A stretch of DNA of 64,000 bases from an uncultured Lachnospiraceae bacterium (GTDB taxonomy: Bacteria; Bacillota; Clostridia; Oscillospirales; CAG-272): assembly GCA_964413365.1 (NCBI GenBank), contig CAYPRM010000003.1:857-64856 (forward strand), read 5' to 3'. The notes beneath the pieces are model-generated. The model had not been told where the DNA came from, searched no databases, and saw only the letters and a list, made by a program, of their open reading frames with translations. How positions within the stretch are numbered: the stretch's first letter is position 1; the number at the start of each line of letters is the position of its first letter. The position numbers and the translations under genes were made by a program. Shown here one piece after another: positions 23,990 to 43,819 of the stretch.

Positions 23990-24207
23990 TGCCAAACCAA
24001 CTGAATACTGATGCAAGGGCTATTTTTCTCTTTTTCAAGGGGAAAACCACCCTTTTATCGCCATACCCATATAAATTTGTAAAAATGCAAATTCCATCTG
24101 GTGTGGCATAGAGAGACTCTTGCACTTCAGTTGGTTTGGCGACTATCGGAGTTTGCGTTTTTGTGCGGTTACTTCGGTAGCCGCACTTTTATTATATTTA
24201 TTTTTTT
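23990..24207 (+). ncRNA. unclassified structured RNA (candidate cis-regulatory leader or small RNA) ending in a UUCG-loop terminator
   Basis: - A perfect 15-bp closing helix pairs gccaaaccaactgaa (23991-24005) with ttcagttggtttggc (24126-24140).
- Nested helices: tgcaag/cttgca (24012-17 / 24119-24), tctct/agaga, aaggg/ccctt, gccatacc/ggtgtggc and aatttg/caaatt.
- A terminator follows: gtgcggttac-ttcg-gtagccgcac (24163-24186) plus a T-run. Then come the RBS aggagg (24208-13) and the ATG at 24221. Confidence 0.4.
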
Positions 24208-24220
24208 AGGAGGTCATTTT

Positions 24221-25558
24221 ATGTATGACAATGTTGGAAGTAAACTAAAAACATTAGCACAAATAAGTGCAATTTGCGGAATTGTAGGCTCGGTAATATG
24301 CGGTTTTATAAGCGGCAATTTTTTGCTTGGGCTGCTAATCATCGTGGTAGGATCGCTGGTCAGTTGGCTATCATCACTTACGCTCTACGCCTTTGGTGAG
24401 ATGCACGAGTATCTTGGAGCTATATGTGGGCATTGTAAAAACGCTACAAAGGTAGTTAGAGATAATAACAAATCATCGGCAAACACAACAAGTTTCAATG
24501 CCAAAACGAGTACAGGAAATAAAGATTCCAAAAATTATAGTGATCAAACTAAAATAACCATTTCAAGCGGCTTAACGGCTATAGGATCTGGTGCCTTCGC
24601 TCATCGCACATCACTGACGAGCGTAACTATTCCCAACAGCGTAACGAGTATAGGTAACGATGCGTTCTATAATTGCAAATCGCTGGAGGATGTTTATTAT
24701 CAAGGGACTCTTGAAGATTGGTGTAAGATCAAATTTGATAACTACGGCTCCAATCCGTGTTATAATGGAGCGAATCTGTATATCAGCGGTGAACTTCTCA
24801 CAAATGTGGTTGTTCCAAATAGCGTAACGAGTATAGGCAAATTTACGTTCTCTGGCTGCACCTCGTTGATGAGCGTAACTATCCCCGACAGCGTAACGAG
24901 TATAGGCTATGGGACGTTCTATAATTGCACCTCGCTGACGAGCGTAACTCTCCCTGACAGCGTAACGAGTATAAGCAGTTCTGCGTTCTATAAGTGCACC
25001 TCGCTGACGAGCGTAACTATCGGTGATAGCGTAACGAGCATAGGCGAAGATGCGTTCCGTAGTTGCACCTCGCTGACGAGCGCAACTGTACCCGACAGCG
25101 TAACGAGCATAGGCAATAGTGTGTTCTCTGGTTGTACCTCTTTGGAATACAACGAGTACGATAATGCATATTATCTCGGCAACAGCAGTAACCCTTATGT
25201 GGTTTTGGTGAAAGCTAAAAGTACTGATATAACGAGCTGCGATATTAACTCAAATACAAAATTTATTCACAGCTCTGCGTTCTATAATTGCACATCGCTG
25301 ACGAGCGTAACTATCCCCGAGAGCGTAACAAGTATAGACGATGAGACGTTCCATGGTTGTACCTCGCTATCGAGCGTAACTATCCCCGACAGCATAACGA
25401 GTATAGGCCAATTTGCGTTTTATGATTGCACCTCACTGACGGAGATACACTATAACGGTACAAAAGTGCAGTGGAATTCTATTAGCAAAGACTCTTATTG
25501 GAATAGCAACACTGGAAAGTACACAGTTTACTGCACTGACGGAGAGATCGCGAAATAA
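24221..25558 (+). CDS. BspA-type leucine-rich-repeat surface protein with N-terminal membrane anchor
   Basis: About 445 aa from the ATG at 24221, preceded by aggagg. Two N-terminal TM helices are followed by roughly 12 repeats of the 22-23-aa unit SVTSIGxxAFxxCTSLTSVTIPD. The track start at 24101 lies inside the upstream RNA structure. Confidence 0.85.
   Translation: MYDNVGSKLKTLAQISAICGIVGSVICGFISGNFLLGLLIIVVGSLVSWLSSLTLYAFGEMHEYLGAICGHCKNATKVVRDNNKSSANTTSFNAKTSTGNKDSKNYSDQTKITISSGLTAIGSGAFAHRTSLTSVTIPNSVTSIGNDAFYNCKSLEDVYYQGTLEDWCKIKFDNYGSNPCYNGANLYISGELLTNVVVPNSVTSIGKFTFSGCTSLMSVTIPDSVTSIGYGTFYNCTSLTSVTLPDSVTSISSSAFYKCTSLTSVTIGDSVTSIGEDAFRSCTSLTSATVPDSVTSIGNSVFSGCTSLEYNEYDNAYYLGNSSNPYVVLVKAKSTDITSCDINSNTKFIHSSAFYNCTSLTSVTIPESVTSIDDETFHGCTSLSSVTIPDSITSIGQFAFYDCTSLTEIHYNGTKVQWNSISKDSYWNSNTGKYTVYCTDGEIAK
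24560..25460 (+). repeat. tandem coding repeats of about 66-69 bp (LRR units)
   Basis: The near-identical DNA stretch cacctcgctgacgagcgtaactatccccgacagcgtaacgagtataggc recurs many times in frame. Confidence 0.85.
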
Positions 25559-26561: not shown

Positions 26562-28256
26562 TTATTCAGCTGCGCCGAGCGTTACGCCTGTGATCGTTGC
26601 GCGGTAACCTACGTTACATGCGATAACGATGGTAACGTCCTCGCCGACACACTCGGTGAGGTCATAGCTCATAGCGAATACCTGATTATTCTCTGCGACG
26701 TCGACCTTCGTCCAATCCGTCTGCTTGAGTACGTTTCCTGCGCTATCAAGGACGATAACGGATACCCAAGGATAGAAGAGATGGTTGGGATCTGCTGCCG
26801 CGGGATCCTTGCAGTTGTCAAGGTTCGTTATGGTTGCGGAGATATCGAGCTTGCAATTCTCGCTCGTGATATCCGTAGTCATATACATATAGGAGTTTAC
26901 GCCCTGAGGATCTTCAGGATCGAAATCCTCTGCCTTCCACGGATCTGCGCCGTTGAGCTGTATTCCCTCATTTACGGTGCCTACGCCTCCGCTGATCGAC
27001 CACTTTTCCTTAAGTGCTGCAGCGTCGAAGATTCTATCGGTGATCTTGGTATGGAGCATGATGCTCGTAAGACCGTCAACTCCGTTTACCTCAAGGTACT
27101 TGGGCTCGTTGCCGCCAAATTCAATTCTGTCAAGGCAGCAGTGGTAGCCCGTCTTTGTTCCGAGAATGAACACAACGGTCTGTCCGTTATACGCGGAGAG
27201 GTCGAAGGTTACAGGCATGAAGCCCTCGGTCGTAATCTGCTTGAAGGTATCAACTTCGGTGATGAGGTTGCCCTGCTCGTCGATGAGGTAGATACCGAGC
27301 TCTGCAAGCTTCGAGCCCGAGAAGTCGCCTGCGGATTCACCTGCGTGATCTGCACCGCCGTTCTGACCGAAGAAGATTCTTGCATAAGCCGTAAGGAACT
27401 GATGGTTCTCGTCGATCTTGACCTTGCCGTATATGAACGCTACCATATTGGAGTTATCACTCTTTGTATCGGCGTTGATGCAAAGTCCCTCGCTGTGCGC
27501 CTCTACCTTAGAGGTGCCTGCAAGTCCGTCGGGGCTGCGTCCGAGGTTGCCAAGCTGGGTATTATTGAGAACAAGCTGACTTGCAGGGAGAACGGTGAGT
27601 GCCTCGAGCTGGCTGGGCTTTATACCAGGCATCTCGGGGAGGTCGTTCTGAACGAGCTGGAAGTTCACGGTCGCAATGCCGTTCGTGCCGAAGGAGCGTA
27701 CCGTTACGGTCTTTCTGCTCTGACCGTAGCCCTCAATATTAGCGGAGATCGTCTTTGTTCCGTGCATAGGAACGTTGGGAATCTCGTAGTCGCCGTTTGC
27801 GTCGGTTACTACCTGTACATTGCCAAGGGAGATCACTACGCCCTCAAGCTTCTTCGAGGTCAAGCCGTCAACGCTGACGTTGCCCTTGATCGTGCCGACG
27901 CCGTCAGCCATAACTATGGTGAGCGTGCAGATGCCGTTCTCATCAAAGCTATCCGCTGTAACTACAGCCTCGGTGTTAGCATATCCCTTGAGGATCGCTG
28001 TGAGTGTGAGTCCGTTGCCGTCCACGTCATTAAGAGTGAACTTGCCGTTCTCATCGGTCTCTACAAAATCCTCTTCCTCGCCGTAGTACACCTCTACCGA
28101 CTCCAAGGGCTCGCCCTCGGAGTCAGTTACAAGGCCTTTTATCACGTACGTATCAGGTCCTTCCGGTGTGGGTGTGGGGCTCGGGCATGCTGTGAGAACA
28201 GATGCACAGAGCACCATGGCGATGATCAATATTAATGTTCTTTTGATGTTTCTCAT
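26562..28256 (-). CDS. lipoprotein with N-terminal carboxypeptidase-regulatory-like (Ig-like beta-sandwich) repeats, function unknown
   Basis: 564 aa. The signal peptide carries lipobox LTAC. Repeated segments such as IKGLVTDSEGEPLESVEV, LKGYANTE and IKGNVSVDG...VISLG are typical of CarboxypepD_reg-like folds. Confidence 0.6.
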   Translation of the reverse strand: MRNIKRTLILIIAMVLCASVLTACPSPTPTPEGPDTYVIKGLVTDSEGEPLESVEVYYGEEEDFVETDENGKFTLNDVDGNGLTLTAILKGYANTEAVVTADSFDENGICTLTIVMADGVGTIKGNVSVDGLTSKKLEGVVISLGNVQVVTDANGDYEIPNVPMHGTKTISANIEGYGQSRKTVTVRSFGTNGIATVNFQLVQNDLPEMPGIKPSQLEALTVLPASQLVLNNTQLGNLGRSPDGLAGTSKVEAHSEGLCINADTKSDNSNMVAFIYGKVKIDENHQFLTAYARIFFGQNGGADHAGESAGDFSGSKLAELGIYLIDEQGNLITEVDTFKQITTEGFMPVTFDLSAYNGQTVVFILGTKTGYHCCLDRIEFGGNEPKYLEVNGVDGLTSIMLHTKITDRIFDAAALKEKWSISGGVGTVNEGIQLNGADPWKAEDFDPEDPQGVNSYMYMTTDITSENCKLDISATITNLDNCKDPAAADPNHLFYPWVSVIVLDSAGNVLKQTDWTKVDVAENNQVFAMSYDLTECVGEDVTIVIACNVGYRATITGVTLGAAE

Positions 28257-28268
28257 TGTTTCCTCCTA

Positions 28269-31200
28269 TTATTCGATTACGTTTGTACCGAATGCCTTGA
28301 ATTCAGAGATACCGAACCAATCGTTCTTAGAGGTGCCGATGTTCTTTATCTTGACAGAGGTCGTTCTGATAGCCTCATCAAGTACAAGTGTCTGCGCCTG
28401 ATTGGTCTCCTTAAGATCGCTCCACCTTATGACCGTACCGTCGGAGAACTCAAGCTCAAGCTCGGTAAGATAAGCGTCGTGCGGGAAATCTGCACGGATG
28501 AAGAGCTCGAAGTAATAAAGCTCTACTTCTCTGCCGAAGTCTATCTTGAGCCACTTATCCTCTACGCTCGCACTCTTATCAGGTCCCCAGCTCTGGTTGG
28601 GGAAGTTTCCGTGTCCACGGTTCGTGATAAAGCCGTCGAATGCGTTCGAGGGGAAGAAGTTTCCGTATCCGTCATTCTCCCATGCGCTTCCTGCAGTTAT
28701 TCTGCAATCTGCACTGCCGTACTCGGCATCATAGGGATTGAGAGCGACGTTATAGGTCGCATGGAGATCCTCCTCGCTCGGAAGGAACGCGGTAATCGTG
28801 GGATGCGTATAAACGTAAGCATTGCTTCCTACTGTAAGGTTAGGAAGGATATTCTCTGCGTATTCGGGTACGGTATAGGTGAATACGCCGTCGGGGCAAT
28901 ACTGAAGTGAAAGCTCCATCTTAGGATTGAGATTGAACCAGATGTACTCATATCCCTTAGGAAGCGTTACAACGACCGTATCACCGGGTTCGATCTTCTT
29001 ATCGAGGTAAAGGATCGCAAGATGTCTGCTCTCAACGGAGCCTATATAGTTACCGTTCTTATCGAAGTACTCTATGAGCACCTTCTTCTTAGTGAGCTGA
29101 CCTGCGATATTAGCCTTATTGAGCTCGTCGATCTTGGTATAGTAATCGCGCATATTCTGACGTCTCTCAGCCTCGCCCATCTCAAGCGAGCCCCAGTTCT
29201 CGGACGCCTCATTATATGTTCCTCTGAAGGGTACGCCAAGGTCTATCCATGCGGCGATGCGGTAGATGTCCTCTTTAGTGATGGCACCGGAGGAAAGAAG
29301 TCCCTGGTGGTCATTCATGAGCATCTCGATAATGCCGCTCTGTGTTGAGCCGTGTGCGTATGCGGGAATGGTCGTAGGATCGCTCATTCCGCCTATCCAG
29401 TCGGTGATATCATTTGTGGGAGTTCCGCAATAGAAGTTGCCCTTAAGGAACGAGCCTGTAAGCACGAGGTAGGAGAGATAATAATCCACCTTATCACGGC
29501 TTGCAACTCTGATCTCATCCGTAAGTGCCACGGGCGAGGTAACAGCAGGATCTACCGTATTATTGCATGTAAGCTCGACGTACATATACGATCCGCCCAT
29601 TGCATTGAGTGCGCGTGCGGTGATAGTATTTGTACCCTCATGGAGGAGTGCCTTCTGAGCCTCGGTAAGCTCAAAGTAGGTCGTACCTGTGATGTATGTT
29701 CCGCCTGCATTTACGGAGTCGATCCTTGTGCCATTAAGGAAGAGCTGAGGATCCTCGTCGTACTGCCACTTAATGAAGAATCTGCCGTTAAGCTGATCTG
29801 CGGTGAGCTCGAACTTCTGAGTCATATAGAAGCAAGCGTTGGAATCAGCACCCCATGTAATGGAGCTTCCCGAGTCGCTTCCGAATGGCTGTCTTGCCGT
29901 CGACCACGAGGGATCGAAGTCGGCACTCGTCCAGTTAATGCTCTCGCTCTTATTGGTTACGAGATATTTCCACGATGCGCTCGTTACGGTAGTTCCGATA
30001 TTCTCGGAGATGCCCTGACTTCCGAGGCGGTCGTTAGCTATCTCAACATTATTATGACACGATACGCAGCTTCTGTCAAGTATGGGCTGTATTTCAGCCG
30101 CATAGCTGAAGCCCTTATAATCCGTATAAGGATCATAATCCTCGTAATCCTCGGTAGTCATCCAAAGATCCTTCTGAAGCTTTTGAACGCCCTTCTTCAT
30201 AGCCATGGTAATACTACCTACGCTATTGGGAACGTTATTCTTATTCTCGTGACAGCCCACGCAGGAGAAGGTCTCACCGGGCATGAGCGTCGACCAGCTT
30301 CTCATCGACTGAATGAGCAAGCCATCCTCGTCAAGGAGCTGGAAGTATACGGGAATGTCGGACGGGCAGCTGAACATTACAGAGCCGTCCTCCTCAACGG
30401 GAACGATACCAAGCACCTGCTTTACGTCCCACGTGGAGTTTGCAGTACCTACGGGCGTTGAGGGGTCGGAGGTTCCGAAGCCGTCGGGATATGCAGAGCT
30501 ATTACCTGCGGAGACTGCTCCGACAGCATAAGGTCTGTAATCAATAGCAACGACTCTGAGGTACTTAACTGTTCCGAATTCGACATCCTTCATAGTGTCG
30601 CCCTCGTATACGTTTGCAACGTAGTATGTACCTACATTGGTTGCGTAATTGACCATACTCGGTCTTACGAATGCGCGCTTTGTACGGATGGGAACTATCT
30701 GCGAGCAGGAGATCGCGCTGCCGTTAGTATTTGCTACGCAGACTATCTCGCCCGTCTTGGAATTATAGTAGTAGAGGTTGAATTTTGTTTCCTGCTTTGC
30801 ACTTGCCCACGAATCGGCTCTTGCAAAGAACATTTCATTTTCGTTGATGGCAACGGGATATTTATATATCCTACCGACCTGACCGAGAGTATCGAAGCTC
30901 TCGCCTGACTCTGCCGCCTCAAACACGTAGTCAACGGGCGACTGACCGTCGCGCTCGATCGCCGTATCAATTATAGCAAGCTTACCGCCCTGTGTTACAT
31001 GGTGTCCGGAGACGATGGTAAGGTACTTGCTCGATGAGCCAGGGATCGCAACGGTGTGCATTACCGTTGTGGGGTTATTGGTATTATTACCGAAAACAGC
31101 CGTCTGTCCTGTGCCGTCGGAGTTCATTGAGAAGAGCGCCTGCACGAACATCTGTGTTCTGTCGTTATAGTCCCAACGTGTATAGAGAACTCTGCCGTCC

Positions 31201-31934
31201 TCTGTAACTGTGGGGTATGTGGTATGAACCTGATCGTAGCCGACACGAATGATATTCGAGCCGTCTGCGTTGCAGATGTAGAGGTTGGAAACGGGTGTTT
31301 TCCAGCAGTCAACGATCTGAACCGCTCTCGAGGACGAGAACACGATCTGACCGTTTGCGAGCCACTTAGGCTCCGTATCGCTTATGCCCTGTCCGAAGGT
31401 GATCTGCTCAAGATACTCCGTTTCAAGGTCATAGGTGTAAAGATGGTAGTCATCCTGCTTATTCTGCTTCCAGCTGAAAACGACCGTCTTGCCGTCTGCA
31501 GAAACATCGGGATCTCTCACGACGCCGTTAGGAGAGTCGATGATGACCTCCTCCTCGCTCTGAAGGTTGCCCTCAAGGTCGTAGGAGAGCTTCAGCTTAA
31601 GGAGCTGAGAGCCCGGCCAGAACACGCCCTCGTTGCCCTCGCCGCCGTTGATGCCTGCGAGGTCGTCGGTAAGTCCCTCTGTATATGCGTAGAAGGATCC
31701 TGCCATGGGCTTATGGCGAGTGATGATATACTCGGATGCGTATCCGTCGATAACGTCTGCGAGCGAGCCGTAATACTGAGTTCCGCCGATGGTCTGAGTA
31801 TTGAGACCTGTGGCGTTGGCATTCACTACGGAATCGGTATAGCCGTCCACGGTATTGCACGCTGAGAGTACAAGACAAAGAAGCAAGAGAGCTGAGATGG
31901 CAATGATGCCTGCTTTTTTATTCATTTTCTTCAT
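28269..31934 (-). CDS. 1221-aa lipoprotein: TolB/PD40-like propeller (hydrazine-synthase-alpha-like) region, two CXXCH haem-c motifs, C-terminal discoidin (F5/8 type C) domain
   Basis: - Lipobox LSAC.
- Propeller-like strings: DVSADGKTVVFS, LANGQIVFSS, NADGSNIIRV, TEDGRVLYTRWDYNDR.
- CVGCH is encoded at 30249-30263.
- CVSCH is encoded at 30054-30068, in the context AAEIQPILDRSCVSCHNN, which resembles the Planctomycete cytochrome-C-type motif.
- The C-terminus NAFDG...WLKIDFGREVELYYFELF is discoidin-like. Confidence 0.7.
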   Translation of the reverse strand: MKKMNKKAGIIAISALLLLCLVLSACNTVDGYTDSVVNANATGLNTQTIGGTQYYGSLADVIDGYASEYIITRHKPMAGSFYAYTEGLTDDLAGINGGEGNEGVFWPGSQLLKLKLSYDLEGNLQSEEEVIIDSPNGVVRDPDVSADGKTVVFSWKQNKQDDYHLYTYDLETEYLEQITFGQGISDTEPKWLANGQIVFSSSRAVQIVDCWKTPVSNLYICNADGSNIIRVGYDQVHTTYPTVTEDGRVLYTRWDYNDRTQMFVQALFSMNSDGTGQTAVFGNNTNNPTTVMHTVAIPGSSSKYLTIVSGHHVTQGGKLAIIDTAIERDGQSPVDYVFEAAESGESFDTLGQVGRIYKYPVAINENEMFFARADSWASAKQETKFNLYYYNSKTGEIVCVANTNGSAISCSQIVPIRTKRAFVRPSMVNYATNVGTYYVANVYEGDTMKDVEFGTVKYLRVVAIDYRPYAVGAVSAGNSSAYPDGFGTSDPSTPVGTANSTWDVKQVLGIVPVEEDGSVMFSCPSDIPVYFQLLDEDGLLIQSMRSWSTLMPGETFSCVGCHENKNNVPNSVGSITMAMKKGVQKLQKDLWMTTEDYEDYDPYTDYKGFSYAAEIQPILDRSCVSCHNNVEIANDRLGSQGISENIGTTVTSASWKYLVTNKSESINWTSADFDPSWSTARQPFGSDSGSSITWGADSNACFYMTQKFELTADQLNGRFFIKWQYDEDPQLFLNGTRIDSVNAGGTYITGTTYFELTEAQKALLHEGTNTITARALNAMGGSYMYVELTCNNTVDPAVTSPVALTDEIRVASRDKVDYYLSYLVLTGSFLKGNFYCGTPTNDITDWIGGMSDPTTIPAYAHGSTQSGIIEMLMNDHQGLLSSGAITKEDIYRIAAWIDLGVPFRGTYNEASENWGSLEMGEAERRQNMRDYYTKIDELNKANIAGQLTKKKVLIEYFDKNGNYIGSVESRHLAILYLDKKIEPGDTVVVTLPKGYEYIWFNLNPKMELSLQYCPDGVFTYTVPEYAENILPNLTVGSNAYVYTHPTITAFLPSEEDLHATYNVALNPYDAEYGSADCRITAGSAWENDGYGNFFPSNAFDGFITNRGHGNFPNQSWGPDKSASVEDKWLKIDFGREVELYYFELFIRADFPHDAYLTELELEFSDGTVIRWSDLKETNQAQTLVLDEAIRTTSVKIKNIGTSKNDWFGISEFKAFGTNVIE

Positions 31935-31945
31935 AGCCTGCCTCC

Positions 31946-34397
31946 TTATTTATAGTACACGCGAAGGGGTGTAGCCAAGCTCTCGGTAGTATTGTCAGCA
32001 TTGACGATAACTATCTCGTAGTAGCTTCCCTTTGCGAGGTCGTCGGGTATATCCAGATCGCACTCAAACACTGCGTAGTCGCCCTTTTCCATATTGGTAA
32101 GGACTGCAGCGACGGTTTGAGATATCTGAATTCCGTACTGATTATAAAGCTTTACTGTTACGTAAGCGTTCTTATCGGTATCCCACTGCTTACGAACCGT
32201 GATCTTATTCATTGTTCTTCCAGGAACGAGGAGAGTTACAGCGAGGTCATTTGTTCCGTCATTTCTGTCGAAGAACACCTGCTCTACTCCATAATATTCG
32301 CCCTCGGAGCCGATGGAAAGAATATAATTCGAGAGATCCTTTACCTGATCGGGTGTGATCTCATGTCCTGCGGACTGGACGAAGAAGCGAACTGCCTCCT
32401 CCATGGTAGCACAGCTGCCGTTGAAGGTATAGGGTGCTGTTCTCCAGATCTCAACGAGCGTGGGGGTATCGAAGCTTCTTGACTCCCATGTATCGTCGAG
32501 GTCGAGCGATGCGGAATCGTGCATCTGCATATCAGTGTAGTTAGGACCTGTATGGCAGGATGCGCAATTAAACTGTGCGAAGAGCTCCTTACCGCGCTGT
32601 GCGGATTCCGTCAATGTGCCGTCTCTGTTGAGATAAGGGCTCTGCGTGGGTGTGAGAGATCTAAGGTAGGAGTCGATGCAATCAAGGAGCTCCTCCTCCA
32701 TCGTATTGAACTGAATGAACTGCATACCCTTACGTACTGCGATCTCAGCGGTTTCACGCGCACCGGTTATCATTTCCGGAGGTGTTCTGTGGGAGTACAG
32801 CATCGACTTTGCCTGCTTGGGGTTTCCAAGTCCGTCGTTGAGGTTATCCCAGTTAAAGCCGTCGGCTCTTGCATCGGGATGGCAGCTTGCGCAGGATTCC
32901 CACGACTGATAGCAGTAATTGCCGTCATACCAGAGTATCTCGCCGATCCTCTCGGGAGTGGGTGCACCCTGACTTCCGATCATATAGAGCTCCGTCTCGC
33001 GGTCGCCGTATTCATCGGTATCAAGTGCAATTTTTGTTATCGTACCGTCAAAGTACTGTGTGAGGTATGCATACTGCATGTCGTACTCATCAGCGAGGAC
33101 TACCTCACGACTGATAGCAGTAATTGCCGTCATACCAGAGTATCTCGCCGATCCTCTCGGGAGTGGGTGCACCCTGACTTCCGATCATATAGAGCTCCGT
33201 CTCGCGGTCGCCGTATTCATCGGTATCAAGTGCAATTTTTGTTATCGTACCGTCAAAGTACTGTGTGAGGTATGCATACTGCATGTCGTACTCATCAGCG
33301 AGGACTACCTCACGGACGCCGTTACCGCCAACATTTATCCTCTCGCAGAAATCTGCGGAGAATTCCACGCGGTCGACTACCTGACTTATGCCGTAGCCGA
33401 AGCTTCCGTTCTCAACGCTCTGAAGCTTTGCGAGCATTGCGGTCTCGTCGATAACGGATATCTGTCCGAGTCCGCTTATAGCGCAAACTATCTTAGCGTT
33501 CTTACCGCTTCCTATAACGTCAATTCCCCATGGGTTGGATGCACCGTATTCAACGTTGTCGAGCAGAACGCCTGCCCAAACTCTCTCGGATACTGCGTCA
33601 ACCACGGTGATTCCGTTGGTGTTGATCCAGCCGCGGTCAAGCTGGGATGTGGGGTACGTATATCTTGCGAAAAGATTGGAGATATAGATATATCTGCCGT
33701 CCGAGGAGACAGCGATATCCTTGACTCCGCCCGTACCGTTGATGAGCTCGATCCTGTTATCAACCTTATTTACCTCAGGATCGATGATGAAAAGATCCGC
33801 AGATACGCTATCGCCCGTGGCCTTTCCACTCGGAAGATGACATGCCACAAAGATCTTCCCCTGCGTAGCCGCTATTGCAATGGGCTCTCTGCCAAGACTG
33901 AGATCTATAGTCGCTACCGTAGAGGAGAGATCCTCTGTAAGTACCGTTATAGAATTGGAAAATCTATTTACGACATAGATATTTCCGTTCAGCACCAAAG
34001 CATCAGTGGGTGTATGACCGACCTCTGCCTTGGAAATGAGTGCAAGAGAGCTGTCAAAGCGATATATCTCGCCTGCAAGCTCGCCAACGAGCGCGTAGAT
34101 GTTATCGCCGTTTACGTAAACTGCGTTAACAGGCTGCCCGAAGGAATAGGATCTGAGGACTGTACCCTCTGCATTGAGCTTATAAAGCTTATTGCCCGTA
34201 GCGTCGGAGACGAACATTGATTCTCCCTTGAGCGCGATGCCCGAGGGTGATATGTATTCCTCTGAGGTATGGAACACATTTACAGACTCAAAGTCCGGCT
34301 TCTCCTTAACGCACGATGTGATGACCAATGCGGACACCAGCACGAGCAGCAAGCATGAAATGCTCAAGAGAAGGTTTTTCTTGATTGTTTTTTTCAT
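31946..34397 (-). pseudogene. lipoprotein with YVTN-type beta-propeller plus di-haem cytochrome c peroxidase (CCP/MauG)-like domain, interrupted by a 205-bp tandem duplication
   Basis: - The N-terminal ORF (34397 down to the stop at 33105) has lipobox ITSC and propeller repeats.
- The C-terminal ORF (to 31946) carries CASCH twice (32879-32893 and 32552-32566), plus FDTPTLVEIWRTAPY, which is CCP-like.
- Both ORFs contain the same 68-aa segment EVVLADEYD...NYCYQS.
- Deleting one 205-bp copy gives one 2289-nt (762-codon) frame. Confidence 0.8.
32901..33310. repeat. perfect 2 x 205-bp direct tandem duplication
   Basis: Copy 1 (32901-33105) and copy 2 (33106-33310) are identical by eye and bounded by the 4-nt microhomology cacg. 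205 is not a multiple of 3. A TGA is created exactly at the junction (cagtcgTGAggt). Confidence 0.9.
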
Positions 34398-34416
34398 AAA
34401 CACCTCCATAAAATAT

Positions 34417-35178
34417 TCATGAATAAGAGTGCAATGCATCCTCTACTGCATTTACACCTACAAACGTGATCAAAAGGCTCACAAACGCCAATATCAGTAT
34501 CGGCGCGATAGCCCGCTTGAAGGACTTGTGCTTCCTTACGTGGAAATATATCGCGTAGAGGCAGGCGGTGATGAGCGCCCAATTCTCCTTGGGGTCCCAC
34601 GACCAATAATTACCCCAGCACTCATTTGCCCAGATAGCACCGAGGAACATTCCTGCGACCATGAACGGAAATGCCGTGATAACGGTCGCGTATATGGACT
34701 TCTCGGTCTCGAGCCTTGCTTCCCCGTCCTTCTTTTGGAAAAGCATTATCACCGTCTGCACGAATGCAACGGCACAGAGTGAATAAGAAAGCATATAGCA
34801 CAGTATGTGCGGAATAAAGAACACCGACTGCAGAGCAGGTGCGCGATGCCATATCATCGTATTGAACATCGCAAACGATCCGATCATACAGATGCTCGCG
34901 CAGAGCGTGAAGTATGCGAATTCTATTTTTGCCCCTCTGACGAAGTGGATCAGCAGATACGCAAGCGGGAAGCAGATGCTGACGAAGGCGAGCACCTGAT
35001 ACATACTGATAAAGGGCACGTATCCGTTATAGATCCAGTTCGCCGCCACTACCACGCCGCAGAGCGTAAAGCCGAGCGTGGTGAGGTATCTTGCATATTT
35101 GCTTTTTTTCACAAGGAGCAGAGTCGCACCGAGCAGAATCAGCGCGGCAAGTATCATAACGATTCTCAGCCAAGTCAT
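34417..35178 (-). CDS. ccsA: cytochrome c biogenesis protein CcsA/ResC (System II haem handling, WWD domain)
   Basis: 253 aa, multi-TM. Tryptophan-rich signature WANECWGNYWSWDPKENWAL, flanking conserved histidines (PALQSVFFIPHI and AIYFHV). Confidence 0.85.
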   Translation of the reverse strand: MTWLRIVMILAALILLGATLLLVKKSKYARYLTTLGFTLCGVVVAANWIYNGYVPFISMYQVLAFVSICFPLAYLLIHFVRGAKIEFAYFTLCASICMIGSFAMFNTMIWHRAPALQSVFFIPHILCYMLSYSLCAVAFVQTVIMLFQKKDGEARLETEKSIYATVITAFPFMVAGMFLGAIWANECWGNYWSWDPKENWALITACLYAIYFHVRKHKSFKRAIAPILILAFVSLLITFVGVNAVEDALHSYS

Positions 35179-35179
35179 A

Positions 35180-36106
35180 TCATCTGCCCTCCCTTTGCTT
35201 TTTATCAGTCGCAGGTACGGTATCGTTCTTTTCCCTTTCCCTGCGCTCCACTATCGGGTAAATGATGCATTGATAGAACGTTCCGAGCATGACAGCCACA
35301 AGTCCTGCGGTTGCGAGGGGCTCGCCGATATCGTTCTTGAACATAAGGGTTACGCGCGAGCTCATCTCGCTATATCCCATAAGGTAGATCTTAAATCCGT
35401 TTTTATATAAGGGAGCGTTGACGCGGAGCTCCTTTGTCTCCATGCTTCCGTTGCTATTATCTATAAATGTCATCTTAGCAACGTACTCCTTCACGGGCAA
35501 TCTTACTGACGCTATGACACCGTCCGCAAGCGTAACGGTCTCCTTGATAGTATCTATCGTTTTTCCGTCGAGAAGATCGTCAAGCCCGATCGCTCCATAA
35601 TCCTCAAAGTCATAATACCAATCGCCGTTAGCCGCTCTCTGCAGCTGTATATCCATCATTACGGCGACAGGTCCGTCATCGGTCATTTTATAGACATCGT
35701 AGACGGGATCGTAATATTTTATCTGAAATTCGTCAAGTCCAAAAGCAAATCCGAGATCGACGGTATTCCCGTCCGCATCCTCAAGATATTTATATGCCTT
35801 GGTATTATCGACCGGGACGGCAACCGTAAGCGACTGCCCAGTCAGGGTGAAAAGCAGGCTTCCGAGCAGGAACAGTACAAATCCGAGGTGGAGTATATAC
35901 GAGCCGAGCCTCTTCAGTCTGAATTTTTGCCCAAATGCGGCAATTATAAGTAGAATAACGAAAATAGTCAAGACGACCGCCATTATTATATTTGCGCCCG
36001 TAAATTCAAGAGGCCATTTCCAACCGAAAAGCTGTGCTGTCGACAGGAAGACAAAGGGCACGAGTATTATCGCAAATGCGATCATCAATGGTTTAATAAA
36101 TTTCAT
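35180..36106 (-). CDS. ccsB: ResB/CcsB-like cytochrome c biogenesis protein (short form)
   Basis: 308 aa. N-terminal TM helices carry LGSYILHLGFVLFLLG (the conserved His-x-Gly). An extracytoplasmic domain follows, then FKIYLMGYS and a final TM. The gap to ccsA is 1 nt. Confidence 0.7.
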   Translation of the reverse strand: MKFIKPLMIAFAIILVPFVFLSTAQLFGWKWPLEFTGANIIMAVVLTIFVILLIIAAFGQKFRLKRLGSYILHLGFVLFLLGSLLFTLTGQSLTVAVPVDNTKAYKYLEDADGNTVDLGFAFGLDEFQIKYYDPVYDVYKMTDDGPVAVMMDIQLQRAANGDWYYDFEDYGAIGLDDLLDGKTIDTIKETVTLADGVIASVRLPVKEYVAKMTFIDNSNGSMETKELRVNAPLYKNGFKIYLMGYSEMSSRVTLMFKNDIGEPLATAGLVAVMLGTFYQCIIYPIVERREREKNDTVPATDKKQREGR

Positions 36107-36130
36107 TTTATCCTCTCTTTAGGAGTCCCC

Positions 36131-36156
36131 AAGGGACACCCCGAGGGGTGTCCCTT
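36131..36156 (-). other. GC-rich hairpin between the 1673-aa gene and ccsB
   Basis: aagggacaccc (36131-36141) pairs with gggtgtccctt (36146-36156). There is no U-run on the minus-strand transcript. It may be a processing or stability element, or a partial terminator. Confidence 0.45.
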
Positions 36157-36175
36157 TTCAGGGGAATATGGTTTA

Positions 36176-39100
36176 TCAGTTGTAGTAAACCTGGAAGTCG
36201 GAAAGTGTAAGATCTATATTCTCGAACGTGAAGCGGATCTCGGTGTTGGAGCTATACCATCTGATATAGTCGCAGTCCTTGGAAGCGATAACGCTACCGT
36301 CAGCCGCATATACGGTGAATGTGATATAGAACTTGCCCTCGCCGTCACGATGGAGCTTAAGTCCGAACTTAGTTGCCTCTTCGAAGATGTGGTCGTAGGG
36401 CTCGCCCTCTGCATCGGTATTGTTGATGTCGAACCACTGACCGTTGCTATCAAAGCCTATCTGCGCTCTGTCGCCGCGGTTCTCTCTCTGATAACCGAAT
36501 ACAGGTCTTACATCATCACCAAAGAGGTTGATGCACATTACTCTGAAATCGCCGCCGGGAGTTCCCTCGTACTTGGAATTGAACACGAGCTCGAATTCCT
36601 GAACGCGGAGACCGTCGATAACGAGCTGATCCTTCTGTCCCCAGCCTGCGCCGTCGTCTATGCTTACCGTTCCGTCCTCATTGAGAACGACTCTATCCGT
36701 ATAGGACTTAAGTGCTACGGATCCTGCATTGAAGTCCTGATACTGATATGTAACGGTGTCGTCGCCGACCTTGAAGCTGAGCTTGACATTGGTATACTTA
36801 CCTGCCTCAAGAGCAAGTGTTGCACCGTCAACGGTCTTAGCCTCGCCGTTAAGCACGAAGCTCCACTGAACGTCAGTAGCCTCTACGCCGTCTGCGAATA
36901 CTGCTGTGAACTTATCAACGCCTGCGTAATTTGTGTAGCCCTTATCAAGGATATCTACGGAAACTGCAACGTCTCTTTCAATAAGTGCGTCAACTGCATC
37001 AACGATAGCCTTTGCAGCTGCGTCGTAATCGACTGTCGTAGTGTTGTCGCTCATAAGAGCGTAGCCTGCTCTGTAAGCCTTCAGGAACTCTACGGAGTTG
37101 ACATAATCAGCGGGGTTAATGCTTGCATACTTAACGAGTGCTGCGGAAAGAGCTGCTTTGGACTTGACGCTACCAGCAAGGTATGTGGTCGTGCCCTCAA
37201 GGAGCTCGTAGCGAACGTTAGCAACGTCAATACCTACGTTCTCGATGTTGATACCGACGATGAAGCCATTGCCCATTTTGCCTGCCCATTCGTTGCGATT
37301 GAACTCGATCCACTCACCGTTTACGGAGTCATAAAGTGCGTATACGAGCTGAAGCTGTTCATTTGCATTTCTATAGCAGGTAAGCTTTACTGTGAAGGTG
37401 TCGCCGACCTCAAGAAGGCCTGCCGCACCAGTCATAGCGGTTGCAACGTCCTCGAAGCCGCCGTCGCTCGACTGCTTCTTACCTGTGCCGTCCCAGTTGG
37501 TCTCAAGTCTTACAGGATTTTCATGCAAGCAGATGCAGCCGTATCCAACGTATGCCCAGTCACTGCCGAAACTGGGGCTGAGTGTATCTGCGTTGAGAAG
37601 GTGGATGGTAGCAACGTTTGCACCGCCGCCATTCTGTCTGTAAGTGATATCCATGGTTACGGAGAAGGATCCGTTAAATACGAGGTCATCGTAAAGGACC
37701 TTTCTGCCTTCCCAGTCGCCCCAGCCGATTCCTGTTACGGAGCTGAAGCCACCGTTAGTGTTATCAACGGTTACTCTATCGGGCATACCACTCTTGATAT
37801 CAGCGACTATGAAGCTTACATCGCTGAGTGTGAAGGTAACGGTCTCGGACTCGAAGCCCTCGCCGCCCTTCTGAAGGGTAACGCTTATTGTGTACTTCTT
37901 GCCGTGCTCGGGAGTGAAGCTGTATGTTGCATCAGTACCAACATTCACGCCGTTTACCTTCCATGTGTAGGTAAGGTTCTTAGTCTTGCTGGATACTGTG
38001 AGGTCATACTTAGCACTCGTGCCCGTGATATATCCGTTGCCGGATACAAGTCCCTTCCAATCTATCTCGGAGAGACCTATCTTATAATCTGCGGAGCCGA
38101 GAGCCTCTGTAAGAGCTGCTGTGTAAATGCTATTAGCCGCATACTCGTCGCTGCCGTTAAGGGTATTGACGATCTCTGCGATAGCGTCGAAGTTGTAGAG
38201 GTCATCCTTCTTAAGGGTGAGACCTGTGATGCTGTATGTGATGGTATCGCCATCAACAACAGCCTTAGTAACGTCTACGTAGTTCTCAGGCTTGAACTGT
38301 GCGATAGCGGTTGCAAGGTTTGCAAGAGCCGTATCAATAGCTGCCTTCTCTGCATCTACGTCATTAAGTACCGTATTAGCGGCATTGACCTTTTCCTCGA
38401 GGTTAGCAACAACTTCCTCGATGTAGTCGGTCTTGGTGAGCTTGCCTGCTGCTTCTACTGCTGTACGAAGGTCTGCCTTGCAGTTGACCTTAGCATCAGC
38501 ATTGAGGCGGAAGCCCTCAATGTCGAAGTGTGCCCACTCGGACTGGATACCGATAACAACGGGACCTGTGTAATCGGAGGATACGCGATTTCCGCTATCC
38601 TGTGTTCCGTCATTGGTAAGGAGTATATTGCCGTTCTCGTCTACGAGATATGCGGTGATATAGGATCTACCATCAATGATCTCGCGCTTTACGACGAAGG
38701 AACTCTTAGTACCGACGGATGTTGTTCCCTCGGGAAGGTCCTTATACGCCTTCTGCTCAAGGCAGGATACCTCAAGCTTGTTGTTCTGAGAGGTAATAGC
38801 TACCCAGTCGTTGATAACATCGCCGTTCGACTTATTGAAGAAGAGTGCGAAAACGTTAACGCCGTTCTGGTTATTGAAGGTAAGGTCGAAGGAGAGTGTG
38901 AAGTTACCAGAGATCGTAAGATCGCTAATTGTAGCCTTCTTACCCTTCATATCGTCCCAACCGTAGTCACCTGTAACGCTGATGCCATCGTCATTGATAG
39001 CAACGCCGGGCTTATTAGATACCCAACCTGCATTTACGAAGGTAACGGTGTATTCCTTCTCTACGGAATACTCGCCCTTTGCTGCGGTGCAGCTGATAAC

Positions 39101-41197
39101 GTACTTACCGAACTGTGTGGGAGCGAATGTGTATGTAGCCTCGGTGGAAACATCCTTGTCGTTGACCTTCCAGCTGAAGGTTGCGCCATCAGCGCTCGTT
39201 GCGGTCATAGCGAAGCTCGGAAGCTTATTTACGAGGTACTGTACATTGTTCTCGGGAGCACCTGTTATATCAAGGGTTACCTTAGAGATGAGCTTAGCTA
39301 TGATCGTCTGAGCCTTGGGAGCATAAACAGATGTGAGAGTGATAGTGGTATCTGCATTGAGAGTATCAAGCTCTGCGATAACGTCAGCGATATTCTCAAA
39401 GTTGGATGCAAGATACTGCTTGCCGCCGTAGCTGATATTGCCACCTGTGGTGTCAGCCTTAGCGATCTCTGCAGGAACGAGTGCGTTCGTAGCAGAAACG
39501 ATATTAGCAACTGCCTCATTAAGAGCAGCCTGTGTTGTAGCGGTGGATGCAGCCGTCTTTGCGTTAGCAAGTGCGAGCCAGCTATCTGCCGTGTAGTCGC
39601 TCTCTACAAGAGAGATGGACATAGCAAGTGCTCTGTTGAGAGCGGTCTTGCTGATCGCCTTATCATTGATGCCTACTGCGAGATTGCTTACTGTGAAGTG
39701 AGCGTTCTCAGCCTGAATGCCAAGGTGAACGTCGCCGACGTAATCCTTGCTCATGTCCTGAGCATCGTTTACAGCGAGAACATTGCCGTAGTCATCAAGA
39801 AGGTATGCCTTAAGATAAGACTTACCCTCAACTATCGTGCGTGTTGCCATAAAGTGCATCGTGCTTCCGATAGCGACGGTGTTGGCAGGCATATCTACTG
39901 TGGGCTTTTCCTCAAGGCTTCCGCCAACTGCGACCTCGAGCTTATTATCCTGCTCGCGAATAGCTACCCAGTTAAGGATATTCTCTCCGTTACTGTTGTT
40001 AAAGAAGAGTGCCATTACGTTAGGATCGGTATTTGCCTGTGTGAATACAAGGTCAAAGTATACCGTGAAATCACCGGAGAGAACGAGGTCGGGAAGAGTT
40101 ACCTTCTTGCCCTCTTCATCGCCCCAGCCAAGAGCGCCGGAAACGACAACGTCATTATCCTCTACCTTTATGGTATCCTCGAATTTCTTGTTTACAAAGT
40201 AGTCGGATTCGATGAAGGAAACTGTCCAGATCTGAACATTAGAATTGTCACCCTTGCTTACTGTGCACTTGATCACATATTCCTTGAATTCTTCAGGTGT
40301 GAAGGTGTACTCAGCAGTCGTAGCGACCTCTGTGCCGTCAAGAGTCCACGAGAAGGTTACACCGTCCTCGGATTCTGCCTTGAGCACGTAAGAGCCGAGG
40401 CTCTCAACTACCATCATCGCATTGTTCTTGAGCTCGCTCTTTACAGCAAGCCTAAGCTTTGCGTTGAGCTTTGCAAGTATGATATCGAGCTTAGGTGTAT
40501 ACTGAGACTTGAGTGTAACTTCAGCATCAGCATTCAGCGTCTTGAGCTCTGCTACAATATCAGCAAAGTTGTGATAATCGGATGCCTTATAGACGGTCTC
40601 GTTCCATGTGAAGGAGAGCTCGTCTGCAGCGATCTCAACCTTTCTAAGGGAGGAGACCAGCTGTGCGATCGCATCGTTGATAGCGGTGACCGCTCCGTTA
40701 ACGTCCTCCTCGGACGCACCGGACGTATTCAAAACCGTTCTACCCGCTTCAACTGCAGCATCGAGCTTATTCCACGATACCGACGTGTAGTCGCCCCTTA
40801 CAAGCGCTGCCGCTGTATTAAGAGCATTGGAGAGAGCTGTTTTGTCAACGCTGGGAACGATATAGTTAATGGTTACAGTCTTTACTGTATCCGTCTTACC
40901 CTCAGCACTTGCTGTTATGGTAAGGGTATATGTTCCCTCTTCCGTGGCGGTGAATTTCTGGGTTTCGCTGTCGTATGTACCGCCACTTACCGTAACTTCT
41001 ACTGTTCCGTTAGTGGTATAGGTCAACGTATAGCTCTGACCGATCTCCAAATACGCCACTTCATTACTTGTTATTGTCAATTCCGTGGGGTCGGGTTCTA
41101 CTGGCAAATCTGGCTTGAACAGATTTTTGATAAAGGTACATGAATTCAATGTCAGAAGCACTACCAATATCAACGCCAATAATTTGAGTTGTTTCAT
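36176..41197 (-). CDS. 1673-aa modular surface lipoprotein with four super-repeats of about 380-400 aa (helical FIVAR-like + Ig-like + beta-sandwich GWGD module)
   Basis: - Lipobox LNSC.
- Four helical segments, e.g. DKTALSNALNTAAALVRGDYTSVSW and SKTALNRALAMSISLVESDYTADSW.
- Four Ig-like segments, e.g. TFSWTLDGTEV..YTFTPEEFKEYVIKC and TFSWKVNDKDV..YTFAPTQFGKYVISC.
- Four beta-sandwich starts: GWGDEEGKKVTLPDLVLSGDFTVYFDL, GWDDMKGKKATISDLTISGNFTLSFDL, GWGDWEGRKVLYDDLVFNGSFSVTMDI and GWGQKDQLVIDGLRVQEFELVF. Confidence 0.75.
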   Translation of the reverse strand: MKQLKLLALILVVLLTLNSCTFIKNLFKPDLPVEPDPTELTITSNEVAYLEIGQSYTLTYTTNGTVEVTVSGGTYDSETQKFTATEEGTYTLTITASAEGKTDTVKTVTINYIVPSVDKTALSNALNTAAALVRGDYTSVSWNKLDAAVEAGRTVLNTSGASEEDVNGAVTAINDAIAQLVSSLRKVEIAADELSFTWNETVYKASDYHNFADIVAELKTLNADAEVTLKSQYTPKLDIILAKLNAKLRLAVKSELKNNAMMVVESLGSYVLKAESEDGVTFSWTLDGTEVATTAEYTFTPEEFKEYVIKCTVSKGDNSNVQIWTVSFIESDYFVNKKFEDTIKVEDNDVVVSGALGWGDEEGKKVTLPDLVLSGDFTVYFDLVFTQANTDPNVMALFFNNSNGENILNWVAIREQDNKLEVAVGGSLEEKPTVDMPANTVAIGSTMHFMATRTIVEGKSYLKAYLLDDYGNVLAVNDAQDMSKDYVGDVHLGIQAENAHFTVSNLAVGINDKAISKTALNRALAMSISLVESDYTADSWLALANAKTAASTATTQAALNEAVANIVSATNALVPAEIAKADTTGGNISYGGKQYLASNFENIADVIAELDTLNADTTITLTSVYAPKAQTIIAKLISKVTLDITGAPENNVQYLVNKLPSFAMTATSADGATFSWKVNDKDVSTEATYTFAPTQFGKYVISCTAAKGEYSVEKEYTVTFVNAGWVSNKPGVAINDDGISVTGDYGWDDMKGKKATISDLTISGNFTLSFDLTFNNQNGVNVFALFFNKSNGDVINDWVAITSQNNKLEVSCLEQKAYKDLPEGTTSVGTKSSFVVKREIIDGRSYITAYLVDENGNILLTNDGTQDSGNRVSSDYTGPVVIGIQSEWAHFDIEGFRLNADAKVNCKADLRTAVEAAGKLTKTDYIEEVVANLEEKVNAANTVLNDVDAEKAAIDTALANLATAIAQFKPENYVDVTKAVVDGDTITYSITGLTLKKDDLYNFDAIAEIVNTLNGSDEYAANSIYTAALTEALGSADYKIGLSEIDWKGLVSGNGYITGTSAKYDLTVSSKTKNLTYTWKVNGVNVGTDATYSFTPEHGKKYTISVTLQKGGEGFESETVTFTLSDVSFIVADIKSGMPDRVTVDNTNGGFSSVTGIGWGDWEGRKVLYDDLVFNGSFSVTMDITYRQNGGGANVATIHLLNADTLSPSFGSDWAYVGYGCICLHENPVRLETNWDGTGKKQSSDGGFEDVATAMTGAAGLLEVGDTFTVKLTCYRNANEQLQLVYALYDSVNGEWIEFNRNEWAGKMGNGFIVGINIENVGIDVANVRYELLEGTTTYLAGSVKSKAALSAALVKYASINPADYVNSVEFLKAYRAGYALMSDNTTTVDYDAAAKAIVDAVDALIERDVAVSVDILDKGYTNYAGVDKFTAVFADGVEATDVQWSFVLNGEAKTVDGATLALEAGKYTNVKLSFKVGDDTVTYQYQDFNAGSVALKSYTDRVVLNEDGTVSIDDGAGWGQKDQLVIDGLRVQEFELVFNSKYEGTPGGDFRVMCINLFGDDVRPVFGYQRENRGDRAQIGFDSNGQWFDINNTDAEGEPYDHIFEEATKFGLKLHRDGEGKFYITFTVYAADGSVIASKDCDYIRWYSSNTEIRFTFENIDLTLSDFQVYYN

Positions 41198-41250: not shown

Positions 41251-42456
41251 TTAAAAACCTGATAATGAGCTGAATTGCTCTGTAAGGAGCATTGCATCAG
41301 CGTTGGTAACGTGATCCATAAGAACACGCTTACCGTAAGAATTACGATCCGAGGTCCAACCGACGATTCCCGTGGTGGGTATGAAGCCACCGCGCTCGTA
41401 GCTCTCATAATCGTGCTCCAAGACTCGCTTGACGTCCACAAGGTATTGAGCCGCCGTTGCATCCACCTTATAGAGGTCGAAGAAGCCCTTGAACATGATG
41501 AGGTTGAACCAGCTGAAGGTCGTGCCGCCGTCACTTCCAGGGTAGACGACATACCCCTCGCCGATGGTCGTATCGCCAAAATACCGCTTACAGTTCTCCG
41601 CCGTCCTCCTTGCCTCCTCGAGGTAATGATCCTCTCCCGTAACTGCGTAGAGGTACGCGCCGCCGCTTATCATCGCGCCACTGTTATAGCTGTATTTCTT
41701 TTTATCAATGCTTCCGTCGGCAACGGCTCTTCCGCCGTGCCAGACGTCCCTTTCGTCCTCATAGACCGTGCCTATAAGGTCGTAATAAAGGTCGTCCTCG
41801 GGATCTCTCAGCGAGTTATAGCAGAAGCTATATATGCCCCTTGCCCAGCTGAGGAATTTTTCCTCGCCCGTTATCTGATGCATCATAACGGCGAGCTTTA
41901 TGAACGGAGCGTTACTGCAGGCATGGCGTGTGATATACGCCTGTCCCCAATATATACCGCCGAGCTGCGGATCGTTTCCGACGGTGTAGATATATTCGGT
42001 AAGCTCGCGTGCGATATCGAGATATTTCTGCTCGCCGTAGAGCATATAGGCATTTGCCATCTCGATGGCTGCCCATATCTGATCGTCGAACACGGAAAGC
42101 TCTCCTCTCTCGCCGAGCACGTCCGCACAGCCTCTCTCATTTCCTCTCGGAACTGCGTAGACGCTGAAGCGGCGCTTTTCTCCGTCCTTACCTGCGTGGT
42201 TATCATCTCGGTATCCCCTGTAATATTCCATAGCGTCTATCACCCTGTCGACAAGGTCCTTATATGCGCCGTGGTTTACGGCAGACATACGCACCGCCAT
42301 CGCAAGGAGGGACGTCATGCTCCAAAAATCCGTAATATCCGAGGGCTTACCGCTCTCATCAAGAACGTTATACACCACAAGACCGAGGTCTGCGGTATCC
42401 TTGACGTATGAATCAAGAACGGTCTGCGCCATTACGGTTCCCTTTTGAATACCCAT
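41251..42456 (-). CDS. glycoside hydrolase family 76-like (endo-alpha-1,6-mannanase type), no signal peptide
   Basis: About 401 aa from the ATG at 42456, after aggagg. It has the twin-Asp motif VFDDQIWAA, GGIYWGQ, ACSNAPFI and YYDLI. It is a paralogue of the upstream gene. Confidence 0.75.
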   Translation of the reverse strand: MGIQKGTVMAQTVLDSYVKDTADLGLVVYNVLDESGKPSDITDFWSMTSLLAMAVRMSAVNHGAYKDLVDRVIDAMEYYRGYRDDNHAGKDGEKRRFSVYAVPRGNERGCADVLGERGELSVFDDQIWAAIEMANAYMLYGEQKYLDIARELTEYIYTVGNDPQLGGIYWGQAYITRHACSNAPFIKLAVMMHQITGEEKFLSWARGIYSFCYNSLRDPEDDLYYDLIGTVYEDERDVWHGGRAVADGSIDKKKYSYNSGAMISGGAYLYAVTGEDHYLEEARRTAENCKRYFGDTTIGEGYVVYPGSDGGTTFSWFNLIMFKGFFDLYKVDATAAQYLVDVKRVLEHDYESYERGGFIPTTGIVGWTSDRNSYGKRVLMDHVTNADAMLLTEQFSSLSGF

Positions 42457-42502
42457 TGGAAACACCTCCTTTTTAGATATTAGATTATTGGTGATTGGTC
42501 GA

Positions 42503-43795: not shown

Positions 43796-43819
43796 ATTCA
43801 GTACCTCTCTTTTCAGCAA

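Follow-up and report, generated by a model that had tools for sequence, protein, structure and literature searches.

Is the gene that lies in two pieces on the minus strand between positions 31946 and 34409 of this stretch of DNA broken in the organism, or only in its assembly? The stretch, here called the window, comprises 64,000 nucleotides (nt) of contig CAYPRM010000003.1 from an uncultured bacterium. The broken gene encodes a fused hydrazine synthase (HZS) beta-gamma-like lipoprotein, a distant relative of hydrazine synthase, and it is interrupted by a perfect 205-bp tandem duplication. On balance, we favour the reading in which the two copies represent a very recent, unfixed, microhomology-mediated loss-of-function (null) allele, and we lean slightly toward the view that some or all of the sequenced population truly has the junction.

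Direct string comparison found positions 32901-33105 and 33106-33310 to be 100% identical, lying head to tail with no spacer. Tandem Repeats Finder reported a single array at 32901-33314, with a period of 205, 2.0 copies, 100% matches, and no indels. The run of identity at this period, 209 nt, exceeds the 205-nt unit by a microhomology of 4 nt (CACG on the plus strand, CGTG on the coding strand). A perfect match of 205 nt cannot have originated by chance. No other long perfect repeat occurs within the 64-kb window, the window is free of N, and the repeat is not close to a contig end. The junction itself reads ...GAGGACTACCTCACG followed directly by ACTGATAGCAGTAAT..., and the elements of the duplication and of the broken gene are as follows.

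32901 to 33105, minus strand: copy 1 of the 205-bp unit, the downstream copy in gene sense, encoding EVVLADEY...NYCYQS in the frame of the 3′ fragment
33106 to 33310, minus strand: copy 2 of the 205-bp unit, the upstream copy in gene sense, 100% identical to copy 1 and in frame with the 5′ fragment
33311 to 33314, no strand assigned: third occurrence of the microhomology CACG, the other two being at 32901-32904 and 33106-33109
33105 to 33107, minus strand: TGA stop made by the junction (TCG TGA, with the junction between TG and A), which ends the 5′ fragment
33105 to 34409, minus strand: 5′ fragment, 434 amino acids (aa) from MEVFMKK, identical to NCBI protein P0129; the mechanical open reading frame (ORF) reaches 34439
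31946 to 33133, minus strand: 3′ fragment, 395 aa as annotated by NCBI (P0126); the mechanical ORF runs from a GTG at 33172
32879 to 32893, minus strand: first haem-binding motif, CASCH
32552 to 32566, minus strand: second haem-binding motif, CASCH

Because 205 equals 3 × 68 + 1, the duplication shifts the frame and places a TGA at the junction. The mechanical ORFs (33105..34439 and 31946..33172) therefore both contain the 68-aa segment EVVLADEY...NYCYQS, and the second of them opens with MHPLPRGSARYSGMTAITAISR, an out-of-frame reading of the upstream copy. When one unit is deleted, a single ORF of 2289 nt and 762 codons results, in which QS stands directly before WESCASCH and the two CxxCH motifs fall at codons 448 and 557. 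The true start is likely the MEVFMKK at 34409, which is the start called in all relatives and which gives a protein of 752 aa with the motifs at residues 438 and 547. In this numbering, the duplicated segment covers residues 367-434 (364-431 in a 748-aa numbering) and corresponds to four strands of the last propeller blade plus the first haem-domain helix, i.e., the joint between the beta and gamma parts. Only 7 nt intervene between the unit boundary and the codon of the first haem cysteine (32893-32891).

The original prediction had described much of this from the letters alone: two identical 205-bp copies bounded by CACG, a frame shift with a stop at the junction (...CAG TCG TGA), a segment shared by both ORFs, an out-of-frame N terminus on the second of them, a 2289-nt gene upon removal of one copy, and an export signal parted from the haem domain. 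String comparison, the period-205 run, and the translations bore these claims out, and the restored protein proved identical to a protein found elsewhere (P0121). The parting of the export signal is seen in the content of the two pieces. The 5′ fragment holds a lipoprotein signal peptide (lipobox ITSC), the seven-bladed HZS-beta-like propeller, and the first haem-domain helix; it lacks a haem motif, terminating 4 codons ahead of the first CxxCH. The 3′ fragment opens with the out-of-frame leader, followed by the propeller's last blade, a di-haem domain that is HZS-gamma-like and carries both haem motifs, and a C-terminal beta-sandwich. Neither a signal peptide nor a recognizable ribosome-binding site (Shine-Dalgarno) was found for it. 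The deposited 395-aa model begins at an out-of-frame ATG within the upstream repeat copy, and the two halves are annotated as separate proteins.

In System II cytochrome c maturation (ResB/CcsA), haem attachment takes place outside the membrane, on apoproteins exported by the Sec route. Since the 3′ fragment has no signal peptide, its haem domain should not mature. We infer that this fragment is unable to become a holo-cytochrome and that the allele is null for the HZS-like beta-gamma subunit. The same evidence bears on whether the break could instead be a working split of the fused gene that yields a beta-like and a gamma-like gene, the arrangement of Kuenenia-type anammox bacteria; to this reading we give almost no credence. 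Its appeal is that the duplicated segment spans the joint (in the 748-aa numbering the beta alignment ends at 389 and the gamma alignment starts at 415), so that each fragment retains a complete copy of the boundary elements, and that beta and gamma are encoded separately in Brocadiaceae (PMC12758564). However, the 3′ fragment would not be exported for haem attachment, the state occurs in one assembly only, and zero divergence between the copies leaves no time for selection. Programmed frameshifting and a functional split were both rejected for want of a signal peptide and a ribosome-binding site on the 3′ fragment.

If the two-copy state is a null allele, what was there before it? The search with the restored protein gave 617 homologues at E ≤ 1e-10. 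Among the 120 best of these, all are in one piece and about 714-834 aa long, the query coverage of most is 92-100% (range, 87-100%), and the closest, P0001, has 752 aa and 94% identity to the restored protein. We also gathered contigs via the identical CcsA protein, the alpha-like protein encoded downstream, and P0001, and eight of the loci fetched in this way cover the site. Nucleotide identity there is 100% for L012, 98.3-99.6% for L003-L007, and about 94% for L001 and L002. Exactly one copy of the unit is present in 8/8 of these loci, 7/8 of which cross the unit into both flanks, and CGTG stands at both unit ends in all eight (aligned: L012, L003, L004, L007, L001, and L002). The comparison with orthologous genes that had been suggested thus found one intact copy in all relatives. 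The restored 752-aa protein is matched residue for residue by P0121, which lies on three Logan contigs, and in the cluster at 90% identity, 18 Logan contigs encode eight intact sequence variants of 752 aa. That cluster contains just two fragments, of 434 and 395 aa; they share an NCBI contig of 71,567 bp and are the products of the two ORFs in the window. The ancestral allele has one copy, the sole state seen in all other conspecific and related contigs. The split gene is confined to a single deposited record, and the two-copy state to one assembly. A 27-mer from within the unit had zero exact matches in GTDB representative genomes and in JGI metagenomes, and exact-protein look-ups were empty for the 430-aa and 434-aa 5′ forms, the 395-aa 3′ fragment, and a 1221-aa form of the alpha-like protein. 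Run and study accessions had no hits in the literature.

Some of these comparisons weigh against the allele being real. Two contigs from sample SRR17221322, L012 (8,033 nt) and L008 (4,115 nt), are exact substrings of the window in its one-copy form. They overlap by 28 nt, and over the resulting 12.1 kb the extra 205 nt is the sole difference from the window. Further contigs from SRR17221322 and from SRR17221344 are also 100% identical to the window, which implies that the same strain is present in those samples. L012 passes through the unit uninterrupted. The assembly behind it is a k-mer graph in which repeats are not resolved, and a well-covered junction should branch such a graph at the unit ends; the straight run of L012 thus suggests that the junction is absent or rare in SRR17221322. 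The duplication was found in no other contig, 18/18 Logan contigs of the 90% cluster being intact, and the junction is without support outside one assembly.

Two features of contig ends at this locus were considered as signs of the duplication and rejected. The Logan contig ends shared by three samples at 33613-33617 lie about 300 nt upstream of the unit, and L007 ends 10 nt beyond the unit, away from the branch point expected of the junction. At window positions 33613-33642, the ends of L008, L009, and L011 and the start of L012 fall in the codons of the family-invariant QLDRGWINTN; this break is probably a graph branch with related species that share that 31-mer.

The strongest alternative, then, is that the organism has only the intact gene and that the second copy arose in assembly, scaffolding, or gap closing, or from a graph loop traversed once too often on the strength of a few chimeric reads. 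We hold this to be a serious possibility, though the less probable one. The exact one-copy sequence in an independent assembly of the identical strain, the single copy in every other conspecific contig, the lack of any second witness of the junction among the records searched, the zero divergence between the copies, and the strong purifying selection on the gene are all as an artefact would have them. In addition, the nearest GTDB relatives are SPAdes-style co-assembled metagenome-assembled genomes (MAGs) with NODE_ contig names. The source of the window may therefore be a repeat-resolving metagenome co-assembly, in which a minor junction edge would force the path twice through the loop.

Other properties of the junction are harder to reconcile with an artefact. 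De Bruijn assemblers cannot emit k-mers that are contained in no read, so junction k-mers absent from the reads could not have been output by one. The window has no Ns, contig end, or other such duplication, and 205 nt would correspond to no usual k-mer or overlap length of assemblies. Wherever the two can be compared, the window is base-for-base identical to short-read contigs, which indicates a high consensus quality. Finally, when blunt 205-nt duplications were placed randomly in the window sequence by simulation, a microhomology of at least 4 nt appeared in only 1.7% of them (p ~0.017). This disfavours end-to-end joining of overlapping contigs and favours a polymerase template switch.

For the null allele that we favour, the proposed origin follows from that geometry. 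In replication, the nascent strand would have left its template at one CGTG tetranucleotide and resumed at another 205 nt away, a template switch of the class of RecA-independent slippage or illegitimate recombination. The segment for the last propeller blade and the first haem-domain helix would thereby have been duplicated. With the frame shift and the junction TGA, the exported lipoprotein would end ahead of the first CxxCH, and the di-haem part would be left without a signal peptide. The downstream alpha-like protein would probably still be made, but without its partner, since its gene has its own AAGGAGG site, which should keep translational polarity small. If one unit were lost, through homologous recombination or slippage between the perfect 205-bp copies, the wild-type gene would be restored exactly, as is generally the case for tandem duplications. 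Microhomology-mediated tandem duplications that give frameshift pseudogenes share the perfect head-to-tail copies and the short direct repeat (here CGTG) flanking the ancestral unit, as well as a unit length that is not a multiple of three, the resulting frame shift and premature stop, and the possibility of exact reversion. No sequence feature sets the window's case apart from this class, although its junction is known from assembled sequence alone.

The state of the gene otherwise speaks to the age of the lesion. Relative to L003, the restored gene carries 3 synonymous and 0 nonsynonymous changes, and its ratio of nonsynonymous to synonymous substitution rates (dN/dS) is about 0.1 (0.09 against L004 and 0.13 against L001). 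These low values reflect purifying selection and imply that the gene is functional in the lineage. In the window, resB, ccsA, and the downstream alpha-like gene are intact. The absence of visible secondary decay is consistent with a very recent event, and the lesion is without detectable age.

A perfect duplication that can be lost exactly also raises the question of a reversible switch, which the original prediction had listed beside a very recent event and an artefact. The latter two both remain; the switch has no specific support, with no recurrence in the 18 contigs. Under this reading, the window would have caught the OFF state of a cap3A-type phase variation, by tandem duplication, of a surface HZS-like cytochrome complex, and we think it very improbable. 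We are equally sceptical that one- and two-copy alleles might coexist in one strain population as a duplication-and-collapse bet-hedging switch of a surface-anchored HZS-like tetrahaem complex, of which no description exists for Bacillota. Genes for surface lipoproteins are often subject to phase variation, and the product here is a surface-exposed lipoprotein by its lipobox; the duplication is perfect and lies within the ORF, its precise loss restores the gene, and both alleles occur on an otherwise identical strain background. There is also a precedent. The type 3 capsule gene cap3A of Streptococcus pneumoniae is turned off by tandem duplications and on again when these revert (Waite et al. 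2001, cited via PMC11163986). The likeness lies in a perfect duplication within an ORF that abolishes the product, a precise loss that restores it, and a cell-surface function. The pneumococcus, however, has many independent recurrent duplications and measured reversion, whereas the window's case is a single one, in one assembly, known from its sequence.

Nothing indicates that the locus evolved to use duplication as a switch. Neither the 18 related contigs nor the 8 intact variants of the 90% cluster contain a duplication, but short-read graph assemblies would break at such a site instead, and there is none among the 120 best of the 617 homologues. The sole feature that would promote duplication is the 4-nt microhomology, which is unremarkable. 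Reversibility is generic to all tandem duplications and is hence no evidence of function.

What, then, would a null allele of this gene have lost? The gene had been labelled a propeller/di-haem peroxidase. That label stood insofar as the haem domain probably belongs to the CCP/MauG-like superfamily, and it gave way insofar as both halves match hydrazine synthase best, one beta and the other gamma. In the restored protein, Pfam recognized no more than cytochrome c domains and, weakly, CCP_MauG (PF03150), the latter scoring 28.9 bits over the whole protein against a cut-off of 25.6 with no single stretch passing; structures of CCP proteins matched weakly (E 2.6e-6 to 1e-2). The best PDB sequence match was 5c2v_C, hydrazine synthase gamma (E 6e-13, query 415-552), and the second best was 5c2v_B, hydrazine synthase beta (E 4.5e-9, query 200-389), with classical di-haem peroxidases weaker. 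An AlphaFold (AF2) model was built for P0001 from a 32-sequence alignment (pTM 0.84), and its best fold match in the PDB was again 5c2v_B, with a target-normalized TM-score of 0.81 and a root mean square deviation of 3.9 Å. Below 5c2v_B, the fold search was dominated by generic beta-propellers and gave no independent word on the haem domain.

The relationship is a distant one. The top NCBIfam match of the restored protein was the hydrazine synthase beta-gamma fusion model (E 3e-18), at 65 bits against a cut-off of 1250. The cut-offs of NF052342, NF052341, and NF052340 were missed at 65.2 versus 1250, 60.1 versus 625, and 36 versus 560 bits, respectively, and for the anammox hydrazine synthase subunit set, the NCBIfam scores were 65 versus 1250, 60 versus 625, and 57 versus 800 bits. 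In the phmmer alignment to 5c2v_C, gammaCys165 (the third covalent link of haem gamma-I, chain index 126) pairs with a valine, and gammaHis144 (chain index 105) falls in a 10-residue insertion that is missing from the query; the offset between the two numberings was taken from residues named in PMC12758564. Compared with the anammox enzyme of Kuenenia stuttgartiensis (5c2v), the window's proteins thus have a like subunit set and fold, with the propeller, the di-haem part, and the middle domain of the alpha-like protein matching chains B, C, and A. They differ in missing the NCBIfam cut-offs by an order of magnitude, in the change of gammaCys165 to valine, and in the absent gammaHis144 insertion. 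To judge from these differences, the beta-gamma-like protein is not a true hydrazine synthase.

The broken gene is part of a minus-strand operon at 28269-36106, in the order resB, ccsA, HZS beta-gamma-like, HZS alpha-like, and 5c2v is the best or only PDB match of all three HZS parts. The remaining genes of the operon are as follows.

35180 to 36106, minus strand: resB/ccsB-like gene (PF05140), which with ccsA makes up System II cytochrome c maturation
34417 to 35178, minus strand: ccsA-like cytochrome c assembly gene (PF01578), directly upstream of the broken gene and intact
28269 to 31934, minus strand: gene of a hydrazine-synthase-alpha-like lipoprotein, downstream of the broken gene and intact

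The alpha-like protein has a lipoprotein signal, an HZS_alpha middle domain (PF18582, E 5e-33), and, at its C terminus, an F5/8 type C domain. It contains two CxxCH motifs, one at residue 558 and one at residue 623. Its sole PDB sequence match is 5c2v_A, in which both haem motifs are aligned. The ribosome-binding site of its gene, AAGGAGG, lies 7 nt upstream of the ATG.

An intact beta-gamma-like gene is present in five other species-level genomes (L013-L017), which are MAGs of uncultured Oscillospiraceae, Christensenellaceae, and Eubacteriales. In the four closer MAG species, the order of FIVAR/PKD, resB, ccsA, beta-gamma-like, alpha-like, and CarboxypepD_reg genes is kept, as far as L014 and L015 extend, and the distant L017 retains only ccsA and the beta-gamma-like and alpha-like genes. 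The adjacency of the last two is kept in L013, L015, L016, and L017, and the locus of L014 breaks off after about 150 nt of the alpha-like gene. Where that gene is complete and the closer species are concerned (L013, L015, and L016), the alpha-like protein is the more conserved of the pair, at 84-86% aa identity versus about 77% for the beta-gamma-like protein. The synteny block from FIVAR/PKD to CarboxypepD_reg corresponds to positions 26562-41197 of the window.

C-type cytochromes are unusual in gut Clostridia. Co-localized HZS alpha-like and fused beta-gamma-like homologues have been described in non-anammox bacteria (Hagglund et al. 2025, PMC12758564), namely in Planctomycetota, Desulfobacterota, and a few others, with the alpha gene first in clades I-III. 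The window's cluster shares with them the fused seven-bladed propeller and di-haem part, the two C-terminal CxxCH motifs, the adjoining gene with an HZS_alpha middle domain, and the lack of conservation of the catalytic hallmarks of true hydrazine synthase. It differs in that its host is an uncultured member of the Oscillospiraceae (Bacillota), that both proteins are lipoproteins, that the cluster is preceded by its own resB-ccsA pair, and that the alpha-like protein has a C-terminal F5/8 type C domain. Its gene order, beta-gamma and then alpha, is that of anammox bacteria and unlike that of the alpha-first clades I-III. By these sequence features, the cluster fits the class of co-localized alpha-like and fused beta-gamma-like genes and would extend that class to Bacillota. 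Our literature search found no paper on these homologues in gut Clostridia.

Other features of the window were observed in passing. The FIVAR/PKD gene next to the operon (36176-41197, minus strand, 1673 aa) contains a 90-nt repeat at 38769 and 39933 that is 71% identical. Opposite this gene, at 36350-41143 on the plus strand, lies a stop-free antisense ORF of 1597 codons, which most likely owes its existence to the composition and internal repeats of the FIVAR/PKD gene. At 24101-25558 on the plus strand is a gene for a BspA-type leucine-rich-repeat protein (PF13306, E 7e-76) with diverged 69-bp (23-codon) tandem repeats at 24821-25441; these match by 74-79% within arrays and represent ordinary repeat-protein architecture. 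Finally, positions 41251-62197 hold a large glycan-utilization cluster that resembles an alpha-mannan degradation locus. Its genes include two tandem GH76 paralogues (41251-43819), an ABC sugar transporter, a GH125 gene, and a GH38 alpha-mannosidase, together with GH43, a LacI regulator, and a mannose-6-phosphate isomerase/ROK gene.

For annotation, the deposited 434- and 395-aa proteins are halves of one 752-aa gene, and they merit a flag as a disrupted gene or possible misassembly. The duplication is an ordinary type of mutation, and the context of the gene that it breaks is more noteworthy. If the junction is real, it would represent a natural null allele of a conserved cluster of resB-ccsA, HZS beta-gamma-like, and alpha-like genes that is under purifying selection in an uncultured anaerobic member of the Oscillospiraceae, and it would allow mutant and wild type to be compared directly within the same strain background. 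Taken together, a complete set of HZS-like subunits with its own haem-attachment genes extends the known range of non-anammox HZS homologues to Bacillota.

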